Assembly: GCF_050920415.1 (NCBI RefSeq)
Contig: NZ_CP169309.1
DNA: 64,000 nucleotides
Source of the DNA: Escherichia coli
Lineage (GTDB): Bacteria > Pseudomonadota > Gammaproteobacteria > Enterobacterales > Enterobacteriaceae
Reading direction: 5' to 3' (one strand)
In this document: in pieces, positions 13,787 to 34,155 of the stretch
How positions within the stretch are numbered: position 1 is the stretch's first letter
Layout of the letters: every line of letters begins with the position of its first letter
The notes under the pieces: generated by a model
Seen by the model: the letters and a program-made list of their open reading frames with translations, nothing else
What the model was told of the DNA's origin: nothing
Database searches by the model: none
Position numbers and translations under genes: made by a program

Positions 13787-13876
13787 AGCCAGCCAATCTT
13801 TTGTATGTCTGTGCGTTTCCATTTGAGTATCCTGAAAACGGGCTTTTCAGCATGGAACGTACATATTAAATAGTAG

Positions 13877-14242
<366 letters not shown>

Positions 14243-29392: not shown

Positions 29393-29575
29393 TCTCTGTA
29401 GTGATTAAATAAAAAATACTTCAGAGTGTACCTGCAAAGGTTCACTGCGAAGTTTTGCTCTTTAAAAATCTGGAATAAGCTGAAAATTGAAACACTGAAC
29501 AACGAAAGTTGTTCGTGAGTCTCTCAAATTTTCGCAACACGATGATGAATCGAAAGAAACATCTTCGGGTTGTGA

Positions 29576-32477
<2,902 letters not shown>

Positions 32478-32663
32478 ACAACGCCGAAGATGTTTTGGCG
32501 GATTGAGAGAATTTCAGCTTGGATCCAGAGTCCGAAGGATTTTGCGCTGAGACAAGGCGGCAAATGAAGCGAAGGAAGGAGCATACTGAAGTATGTGACT
32601 GATTTTCGCGAATGCAGCCAACGCAGTATCAGCACAAAAGACACAGGACAGAGCACAGGAATT

Positions 32664-32783
32664 TGCCTGGCGGCCGTAGCGCGGTGGTCCCACCTGACCC
32701 CATGCCGAACTCAGAAGTGAAACGCCGTAGCGCCGATGGTAGTGTGGGGTCTCCCCATGCGAGAGTAGGGAACTGCCAGGCAT
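32664..32783 (+). rRNA. rrfD: 5S ribosomal RNA (120 nt), first copy
   Basis: TGCCTGGCGGCCGTAGCGCGGTGGTCCCACCTGACCCCATGCCGAACTCAGAAGTGAAACGCCGTAGCGCCGATGGTAGTGTGGGGTCTCCCCATGCGAGAGTAGGGAACTGCCAGGCAT. Confidence 0.97.
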
Positions 32784-32835
32784 CAAATTACGAAGAATGG
32801 CACTGACCTTTGAGGCAGTTCACTACTCGATAAGA

Positions 32836-32930
32836 GAGTAGGACAAAAGCGAAAGCTTTTGAACGTTGCGAAGCAACGGCCCGAAGGGTGAATCGCGAAG
32901 TGATTCATAAACTGCCAGGCATCAAATTAA
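32836..32930 (+). repeat. rrn distal spacer module copy 1 (GAACGTTGCGAAGCAACGGCCCGAAGGGTG hairpin + 5S 3'-end fragment AACTGCCAGGCATCAAATTA)
   Basis: Imperfect direct repeat of 33243..33345; includes a ~20-nt copy of the 5S 3' terminus. Confidence 0.7.
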
Positions 32931-32934
32931 GCGT

Positions 32935-33010
32935 GCTGATATGGCTCAGTTGGTAGAGCGCACCCTTGGTAAGGGTGAGGTCCCCAGTTCGACTCTGGGT
33001 ATCAGCACCA
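32935..33010 (+). tRNA. thrV: tRNA-Thr (anticodon GGT)
   Basis: GCTGATATGGCTCAGTTGGTAGAGCGCACCCTTGGTAAGGGTGAGGTCCCCAGTTCGACTCTGGGTATCAGCACCA between the two 5S genes, as in rrnD. Confidence 0.96.
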
Positions 33011-33047
33011 CTTTTTAGGTTAAAGTTCGGCAGATTAGAAAAGAATT

Positions 33048-33167
33048 TGTCTGGCGGCAGTAGCGCGGTGGTCCCACCTGACCCCATGCCGAACTCAGAA
33101 GTGAAACGCCGTAGCGCCGATGGTAGTGTGGGGTCTCCCCATGCGAGAGTAGGGAACTGCCAGACAT
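33048..33167 (+). rRNA. rrfF: 5S ribosomal RNA (120 nt), second copy
   Basis: TGTCTGGCGGCAGTAGCGCGGTGGTCCCACC...GGGAACTGCCAGACAT; near-identical to first 5S copy with terminal-helix variants. Confidence 0.96.
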
Positions 33168-33172
33168 CAAAT

Positions 33173-33213
33173 AAAACAAAAGGCTCAGTCGGAAGACTGA
33201 GCCTTTTGTTTTA
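33173..33213 (+). terminator. rrnD terminator T1
   Basis: AAAACAAAAGGCTCAGTCGGAAGACTGAGCCTTTTGTTTTAT: long hairpin with flanking A/T tracts immediately after second 5S. Confidence 0.8.
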
Positions 33214-33242
33214 TCTGTTGTTTGTCGGTGAACACTCTCCCG

Positions 33243-33345
33243 AGTAGGACAAATCCGCCGGGAGCGGATTTGAACGTTGCGAAGCAACGGCCCGGAGGGT
33301 GGCGGGCAGGACGCCCGCCATAAACTGCCAGACATCAAATCAAGC
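33243..33345 (+). repeat. rrn distal spacer module copy 2 (with 5S 3'-end fragment AAACTGCCAGACATCAAAT)
   Basis: Shares GAGTAGGACAAA...GAACGTTGCGAAGCAACGGCCCGGAGGGTG...AAACTGCCAG(A/G)CATCAAAT with 32836..32930. Confidence 0.7.
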
Positions 33346-33346
33346 G

Positions 33347-33377
33347 AAAGGCCATCCGAAAGGATGGCCTTTTTGCG
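33347..33377 (+). terminator. rrnD distal terminator (T2-like); bidirectional with yhdZ 3' end
   Basis: AAAGGCCATCCGAAAGGATGGCCTTTTTGCG hairpin plus T-run; lies 20 bp from the yhdZ stop on the opposite strand. Confidence 0.75.
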
Positions 33378-33396
33378 TTTCGAATCCATGTACAAT

Positions 33397-34155
33397 TTAA
33401 TGGATAACCTGCGATAAAAATGCCCTCGTACGCTCCGATTTAGGATGCGCAAAAAATTCATCAGGTGTAGCTTGTTCCACTATCTCCCCACGATCCATAA
33501 AAATCACCCGATCAGCGACGGTTCGCGCAAATCCCATCTCGTGCGTTACGCACAACATTGTCATACCCGACTGCGCCAGCCCAATCATCGTATCCAGCAC
33601 TTCTTTTACCATCTCCGGATCGAGCGCCGATGTGGGCTCATCAAACAACATAATTTTCGGCTTCATACACAGCGAGCGCGCAATGGCAACACGTTGCTGC
33701 TGACCACCAGAAATCTGTCCTGGAAACTTCTGGGCATGTTCGGCAATTCTCACCCGCTCAAGGTAATGCATCGCCAGAGCTTCAGCCTCTTTCTTAGGCA
33801 TCTTGCGTACCCAAATCGGTGCCAGGGTACAGTTCTGTAGAACGGTCAGATGAGGGAAGAGATTGAAATGCTGAAAGACCATTCCCACTTCCTGCCTGAC
33901 GCGCTCAATATTGCGGATATCTTCATTAAGTTCGATGCCATCCACCACGATCCGTCCCTGTTGATGTTCTTCCAGATGATTAATACAACGAATGGTTGTC
34001 GATTTACCGGAACCAGAAGGGCCACACAGAACGATCCGTTCTCCCGGTTGCACGGTTAAATTTATATTTTTCAAAACATGGAATTGTCCATACCATTTAT
34101 TGACGTTTTCCAGCGTAATCATCGCGTTAGCAGGTTGCAGTAAAATTTGGCTCAT
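33397..34155 (-). CDS. yhdZ: Polar amino-acid ABC transporter ATP-binding protein (252 aa)
   Basis: ORF with Walker [13 protein letters not shown] signature [15 protein letters not shown], Walker [12 protein letters not shown]. Confidence 0.93.

Follow-up and report, generated by a model that had tools for sequence, protein, structure and literature searches.

The spacer modules behind the 5S genes of an Escherichia coli rrnD operon as tRNA-linked repeats: rrF and a putative type-A copy

Why is each of the two 5S rRNA genes at the distal end of an Escherichia coli rrnD operon followed by a hairpin-rich spacer module that closes with a copy of the 5S 3' end? The operon lies in a 64,000-nt stretch of contig NZ_CP169309.1 (assembly GCF_050920415.1), which we refer to as the window, and its last genes, all on the plus strand, are rrfD (5S#1, 32664..32783), thrV (32935..33010) and rrfF (5S#2, 33048..33167), with module 1 between rrfD and thrV and module 2 behind rrfF. 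The first-pass annotation of this DNA took the modules for the footprint of the tandem duplication that created the 5S-thrV-5S arrangement. We favor a different reading, to which we would give a probability of about 0.78, namely that both modules are tRNA-linked repeats (TLRs), module 2 being rrF and module 1 a type-A copy, and that they specify co-transcribed, enzyme-released, repeat-bounded spacer RNAs that are polymorphic in presence.

Homology of the two modules to known tRNA-linked repeats

TLRs go back to Egan & Landy 1978 and Rudd 1999 (as cited in Stenum et al. 2021, PMC8144298). K-12 has 22 copies at ten loci, each behind a tRNA or rRNA gene, and the 3' end of a TLR is identical over 18-19 bp to the 3' end of its host gene (Stenum et al. 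2021, PMC8144298). The TLRs between terminators T1 and T2 of rrnA, rrnB and rrnD are rrA, rrB and rrF, respectively; their RNAs (RrA,B,F) occur as 173-nt and ~115-nt species whose ends fit RNase E cleavage, have a half-life of ~2.5 min and bind Hfq and CsrA in vitro, the binding of RrB being specific (Stenum et al. 2021, PMC8144298). The idea that a T1-module-T2 unit ends all seven rrn operons proved wrong, as three of the seven have it in K-12 and the number varies between strains.

Both modules occupy the position of a TLR, directly downstream of a 5S gene within the same operon, and both end like one: the terminal repeat matches the preceding 5S end at 20/20 positions in module 1 and at 20/21 in module 2 (33155-75 against 33323-43), with a chance expectation of 0. 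They are also homologous to established TLRs. A covariance model built from 40 distinct type-A 5S-linked sequences only (model R1) scored 145.5 bits on module 1 (32798-32926, E 3e-39), 71.5 bits on both module 2 (33208-33339) and K-12 rrF (E 2e-18), and 30-41 bits on the four TLRs of K-12 tyrT (E 1e-6 to 8e-10), all of these matches being full-length; a search of the window with R1 returned no match besides the two modules. When the tyrT copies are aligned, tRNA-derived sequence (GGGGAAGG/CCUUCCCC) forms the closing helices where the 5S-linked copies have GGCAGU/ACUGCC.

The relationship between the modules is evident within the window. The 18-mer pattern AACTGCCAGRCATCAAAT occurs four times (at 32771, 32910, 33155 and 33323), as two genuine 5S ends and two fragments, and there are two copies of a 30-nt core, GAACGTTGCGAAGCAACGGCCCGRAGGGTG (at 32861 and 33272); shuffled sequences would be expected to contain neither (0 in each case). 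A lack of similarity between the modules would have spoken against the first-pass annotation's picture of a duplicated module, and self-alignment of the post-5S regions instead gave three colinear blocks (GAGTAGGACAAA, 12/12 identical; a 33-nt core, 97% identical; and ATAAACTGCCAGRCATCAAATYAAGC), so the modules are homologous. Two hairpins between the aligned blocks differ in sequence from module 1 to module 2 and keep their folding in both. The central observation of the first-pass annotation, a repeated hairpin module behind each 5S gene that closes with a copy of the 5S 3' end, was thus confirmed; the shared core spans 30 nt and the copies of the 5S end 18-20 nt. Its details of module 1 needed adjustment: the first fragment is real and starts at 32910 rather than 32909, the module itself extends further 5' (to ~32798-32814), and 15 nt that repeat the 5S 3' region in inverted orientation had been left out altogether.

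Judged by its sequence, module 2 (33171..33343, plus strand) is the already known rrF, a type-B TLR, because it is identical to K-12 rrF except at one base of the T1 stem. It has every feature of the RrA,B,F group that we looked for: identity over the TLR against a group value of >98%, five GGA motifs in loops, T1 in front (33171..33214; hairpin and T-run, terminator scan) and T2 behind (33347..33372; hairpin and T-run, repeat analysis and terminator scan). That module 2 supplies terminator structures, as had been suggested, agrees with published work in that it lies between these two. Its terminal repeat (AACTGCCAGACATCAAATCAA, 33323..33343, repeat analysis) shows the A variant of 5S#2. The T1 stem extends into a 35-nt inverted repeat (33156-33190 / 33195-33229) in which the 3' end of 5S#2 pairs with the segment directly past T1; this segment could pair either with the 5S end, in the extended stem, or with the repeat copy. 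By analogy with RrB mapping, its RNA would be the 173-nt RrF, with a short form of ~115 nt from ~33225.

Module 1 (32787..32929, plus strand) is, on the same kind of evidence, an uncatalogued type-A TLR copy and a new member of the known family. It shares with rrA, rrB and rrF the invariant core, the order of hairpins H1-H2-H2b-H3 and the 5S-end repeat. It differs from them in having a tRNA gene rather than a terminator next and no T1, in having GAA/GAAA loops and one GGA motif against five, and in the sequences of H1 and H3, which are unrelated; its identity to the group is confined to the conserved blocks, and it has a terminator neither before nor after it. It is not in K-12, and hence lay outside the study of Stenum et al. 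2021. The RtT or tyrT-distal 178-bp repeats (RF00391; rttR of K-12) have the same cassette core as module 1 (GAACGTTGC..GCAACGGCCCGAAGGGTGA), GAA-type loops, and a host 3' end that is copied twice, once inverted and once directly with a split, and the models of the two groups match reciprocally. They differ in that their host is tRNA-Tyr, so that tRNA sequence makes up P1, P2 and the terminal repeat, in being arranged in tandem with 3-4 copies, and in that the Rfam model places 5S-linked copies under its gathering threshold.

The module has gone without annotation. At gathering thresholds Rfam annotates nothing in module 1 or module 2, and the RefSeq annotations of carrier genomes do not flag the type-A copy. 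Two other readings were tried and rejected. ARAGORN and the Rfam tRNA model matched thrV alone in the region and found no tRNA in the three hairpins, which disposes of a tRNA-like reading. A small protein could be sought in a 14-codon open reading frame (ATG..TAG, 32797-32841), the ATG of which is found only in Kluyvera, Raoultella and Superficieibacter, with no conservation of the start codon outside close genera and no clear ribosome-binding site.

Architecture, fold and proposed processing

Module 1 starts right behind 5S#1 and stops 5 nt short of thrV, and its extent fits an exact 139-bp indel relative to K-12. It is bounded by a 20-nt direct repeat, of which copy 1a (AACTGCCAGGCATCAAATTA, 32771..32790) comprises the last 13 nt of 5S#1 and 7 nt of trailer and copy 1b, the 5S 3'-end fragment, lies at 32910..32929 (20/20 identical). 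Between them follow an inverted copy of the 5S 3' region (GGCAGTTCACTACTC, 32814..32828; 15 nt, 93% complementary to 5S positions 32763-32777), which provides the 5' strands of the closing helices P1 (32814-32819) and P2 (32821-32828) that are kept in the 40 sequences; the first part of a direct copy (GAGAGTAGG, 32834..32842, a 9/9 repeat of 5S positions 32761-32769), which forms the 3' strand of P2; and a hairpin cassette with GAAA/GAA loops (32844..32906, folding z = -5.5) made up of H1 (32844-32861), H2 (32864-32878), H2b (32879-32889) and H3 (32890-32906). The 3' strand of P1, ACTGCC (32911-32916), is part of copy 1b. All of these elements are read on the plus strand.

A common layout emerges when the two host genes that we examined, 5S rRNA and tRNA-Tyr, are compared. 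In a TLR the last ~15-20 nt of the host gene are present as an inverted copy and again as a direct copy, the latter split by a conserved cassette of ~65 nt (H1, H2, H2b, H3); inverted and direct copies pair to form P1 and P2, and the element ends with the 18-20-nt 3' terminus of the host. The inverted copy is 15 nt long and 93% complementary in the 5S-linked form, as opposed to 22 nt and 86% in the tRNA-Tyr-linked form, and the first part of the direct copy is GAGAGTAGG in the former and GAATCGAACCTT in the latter; a short loop, a homologous cassette and a last part of 20 nt are present in both. The cassette enters the 5S copy at the junction before helix I and the tRNA-Tyr copy inside the T-loop. 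Both kinds of repeat, direct and inverted, were found in the window and at tyrT.

The fold is conserved as RNA. Across 40 type-A Enterobacterales sequences, 95.9% of the cells of the five-helix fold are paired and 14 pairs have changed on both sides (H1 4, H2 2, H3 7, P2 1). For four of five measures (cells paired, both counts of two-sided changes and the covariation score) the observed value was unmatched in 500 shuffles, and for the fifth, further pair types, it was attained by 7 of the 500; controls in which the pairing was slid gave ~35-43% pairing. RNAalifold independently gives the same helices, and the 30-nt core is invariant in the type-A alignment.

Two side observations concern the 5S genes themselves. 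Minimum-free-energy folds of 5S plus module (32664-32934 and 33048-33380) pair the 5' strand of 5S with the downstream repeat copy and not with the true 3' end, which in the fold for module 2 lies within the extended T1 stem; this pairing could be real or an artefact of the prediction. In addition, the G/A variant of each fragment matches its own upstream 5S, GGCAT with GGCAT (32771-32788 / 32910-32927) and GACAT with GACAT (33155-33172 / 33323-33340).

How might such an RNA be released? We propose that module 1 is transcribed within every rrnD precursor, between rrfD and thrV. In the published system the RNase E sites lie 3 nt behind 5S and, in RrB, likewise behind the repeat (Stenum et al. 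2021, PMC8144298), and the earlier suggestion of a role in RNase processing is in line with that work, as the 5S 3'-end copies of the modules recreate the context of the RNase E site. In module 1, RNase E would cut 3 nt past 5S#1 and 3 nt past the copy of the 5S end, that is after 32786 and after 32925, with the trailer CAUCAA|AUU at both predicted sites, and RNase P would then take off a 9-nt thrV leader. The expected product is a folded RNA of ~139 nt (32787-32925). P1 would present the 3' repeat as a helix, a single-stranded A/U stretch and a helix, mimicking a true 5S end. Whereas ~87% of transcripts are stopped at T1 (Stenum et al. 2021, PMC8144298), and RrF would by contrast arise only from the ~13% that pass it, the module 1 RNA would be expected from every transcript. 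A parallel can be drawn with 3'ETS-leuZ, a small RNA sponge from the glyW-cysT-leuZ precursor, which is also a spacer or trailer RNA that is freed by RNase E and whose level follows stable-RNA transcription; its sequence and structure are unrelated to the type-A TLR, for which no target pairing is known.

Two subtypes and their polymorphism

We gathered 5S-linked copies from at least 100 Enterobacterales loci and compared 102 copies (one scanned locus, from Delftia, was a chance match). Type B has T1 upstream, 120-129 nt from the 5S end to the core, GGA loops, mostly 4-7 GGA motifs, and a terminator next downstream (one copy is without a downstream call). Type A has no T1 and no room for it, 91-101 nt from the 5S end to the core, GAA/GAAA loops and mostly 0-2 GGA motifs (3-4 in a few copies), and is followed by thrV, tRNA-Asp or a terminator. 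In copies that precede thrV or tRNA-Asp, the additional ~30 nt occupied by T1 in type B are missing; both subtypes occur across several Enterobacterales families, and T1 is found together with type-A hairpins in some copies from Yersiniaceae. Since the subtypes track both transcriptional context and GGA content, CsrA binding as seen with RrB is probably a trait derived within the subtype that terminators flank. The binding of RrB to CsrA depends on loop GGA motifs (Stenum et al. 2021, PMC8144298) and module 1 has only one, so that it is unlikely, by this analogy, to share the property and to titrate CsrA as RrB does.

Tandem 5S-linked TLRs are seen in some Enterobacterales (L084 296-598, with two copies and a T1-like hairpin on each; L005 12594-12917; L041 6344-7065; L083), and Rouxiella silvae has three TLRs around thrV and 5S. 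Erwinia typographi (L087 507-630) has a tRNA-Tyr-linked TLR between tyrU and glyT of a thrU-tyrU-glyT-thrT operon, with a much longer direct repeat made up of the tRNA 3' end and ~35 nt of trailer. Outside this order, AaHKsRNA22 (RF02902, Aggregatibacter sRNA 22) has the same hairpin order and a GAACGUUG..CAACGGCCC..GGG core in its consensus, and matches module 1 full-length at a sub-threshold 22.7 bits (32836-32922, a single alignment); it belongs to a different order, the Pasteurellales, and TLR-like elements may therefore exist in Pasteurellaceae under another name.

Within E. coli, both subtypes are polymorphic. Among 5,426 complete genomes, 574 have a type-A copy anywhere, joined to thrV at rrnD in nine and to aspU-dkgB at rrnH in 565, and 3,249 have a type-B copy at rrnD (T1 plus module, joined to yhdZ). 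No genome has type A at both rrnH and rrnD, where ~1 would be expected under independence, a difference that is not significant. The differences between strains are exact. K-12 rrnD is short by exactly 139 bp, which is module 1 including one 20-nt repeat copy, and the same exact 139-bp unit distinguishes rrnH of strain 55989, which has a type-A copy there as does O104:H4, from rrnH of K-12. Compared with the window, strain 536 has lost exactly 168 bp between direct repeats, that is T1 and the type-B TLR, which leaves 5S#2 fused directly to CAAATCAAGCG and T2 (L104 930-1030). Such polymorphism is explained by the flanking direct repeats, which favor exact loss and gain, and in our model recombination between them would mediate both. 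The order 5S, type-A TLR, thrV, 5S is also found in E. whittamii, Pseudocitrobacter, Superficieibacter, three Brenneria and Rouxiella, and for this reason the arrangement in the window looks old and the K-12 form a deletion derivative.

These polymorphisms also speak for the least improbable alternative, in which TLRs are selfish or neutral repeats, regenerated by their direct repeats and by gene conversion with the adjacent gene, and the RNA is functionless. Both modules vary in presence at no obvious cost, some genomes have tandem arrays, the reported phenotypes of rrA/B/F deletion are only modest (Stenum et al. 2021, PMC8144298), and fragment and upstream 5S agree in their G/A variant in 56 of 58 pairs across the loci that we fetched, an agreement that is consistent with ongoing homogenisation or with co-selection. 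However, neutrality does not sit well with an invariant 30-nt core, with hairpins that two-sided changes have preserved in genera from several enterobacterial families, with a strict correlation of subtype and transcriptional context, or with the specific binding of Hfq and CsrA by RrB in vitro, and we regard this alternative as improbable, though not to the point of dismissal. A bolder idea, and a long shot in our estimate, is that the cassette is self-propagating and rebuilds host-specific flanks behind each new stable-RNA gene, through an as yet unrecognised insertion process, mediated by RNA or by replication and aimed at structured 3' ends. If this were true, type A could be an abundant RNA, one per rRNA transcript, and a conserved partner could read its four C(GAA/GAAA)G loops.

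The duplication scar proposed by the first-pass annotation would leave the modules and their 5S fragments as by-products of a 5S-thrV-5S tandem duplication without a role of their own. It has in its favor that the two 5S genes are 98% identical and 384 bp apart with a related module behind each, and that 5S-end repeats are the type of sequence used by unequal crossing-over. Yet the same element is found behind single 5S genes (rrnA, rrnB) and behind tRNA-Tyr genes, module 1 is missing from the 5S-thrV-5S of K-12 and of all but nine of the 5,426 E. coli genomes, and it also precedes tRNA-Asp, at rrnH in E. coli and in other genera, where terminators can likewise follow. Furthermore, the modules represent anciently separated subtypes spread over several Enterobacterales families, yet the 5S genes are nearly the same, and compensatory changes maintain the fold, which argues against a decaying scar. 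We consider this origin very unlikely.

Less probable still is that module 1 is the attL-attR remnant of an integrative element aimed at the 5S 3' end. An exact indel flanked by 20-nt direct repeats of a stable-RNA 3' end does resemble the work of tRNA-targeting integrases, but the insert is 139 bp long with a single non-conserved 14-codon open reading frame as its coding capacity, the same cassette stands behind tRNA-Tyr with host-specific inverted copies, the conserved structure is that of the RNA from the transcribed strand, and there are no integrase or phage genes nearby. The least credible proposal, a terminator or attenuator between 5S#1 and thrV, can appeal to several stable GC-containing hairpins, but a terminator scan of 32784-32934 found none and no hairpin there has a T-run after it, thrV and 5S#2 downstream require read-through, and among the 102 copies those preceding a tRNA have no room for T1.

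Several points nevertheless weigh against the reading of both modules as TLRs that yield processed RNAs. Rfam RtT matches module 1 full-length at 29.9 bits and module 2 at 18.8 bits, and both scores miss its gathering threshold of 45 bits; that model was built from tyrT-type copies. In P1 only one-sided (G-U) changes are seen, because the search pattern kept its 3' strand constant and that strand follows the 5S sequence, and the covariation alignment is made up of related sequences. As it is based on at least 100 loci, the taxonomic picture is a sample. The RNase E and RNase P processing of module 1 and its RNA ends are predictions transferred from 5S and RrB. Finally, module 1 is dispensable, being missing from most E. 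coli, and module 2 is missing at rrnD in ~40% of genomes, so that any function is subtle or redundant.

Genomic surroundings and meaning

The rest of the distal end of rrnD is of the usual kind. On the plus strand, 23S ends at 32477, the 5S genes are supported by Rfam (5S#1, RF00001, 92.8 bits; 5S#2, 90.2 bits) with ends taken from the sequence, and thrV, a tRNA-Thr(GGU) found by ARAGORN and Rfam, is separated from 5S#1 by a spacer of 151 nt; the second spacer, between T1 and T2, holds module 2. The convergent yhdZ (33397-34155, minus strand) follows. The first-pass annotation saw a bidirectional terminator shared with yhdZ; T2 does lie 24 nt past the yhdZ stop, the terminator scan calls it on the minus strand too, and with its minus-strand U-tract interrupted (CGCUUGAUUU) bidirectional use is plausible from the sequence, but only that.

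A 943-bp stretch here is 100% identical to E. coli strain MFDS1022581, which is among the nine genomes with type A at rrnD, and the 7 kb downstream of it are 97% identical to K-12. A patch from T2 into the 3' end of yhdZ (33341-33640) is 95.0% identical to E. whittamii and 91.9% to K-12, while the 7 kb beyond it are ~97% K-12-like and ~90% E. whittamii-like; these identities hint at a small recombinant or imported segment, or a retained ancestral haplotype, beside the operon end. The 23S-5S spacer (32478-32663) is ~94 nt longer than that of K-12, its central part being replaced or expanded, and 368 of the 5,426 E. coli genomes have this long variant, each in 1-5 of its operons. Elsewhere in the window, a StyR-44 element in the pre-23S spacer (29460-29568) and an alpha-operon ribosome-binding-site leader (13807-13918) are ordinary Rfam matches.

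What, then, do the two modules add? These are modest additions to a neglected family and do not overturn its current understanding. The 'duplicated spacer' deserves annotation as two TLRs, rrF and a type-A copy. The shared architecture, in which inverted and split direct copies of the host 3' end surround a cassette, is a constraint on any model of TLR origin or function. The exact polymorphisms of both subtypes within E. coli, for their part, amount to natural knock-outs and knock-ins with which the function of these elements could be tested.

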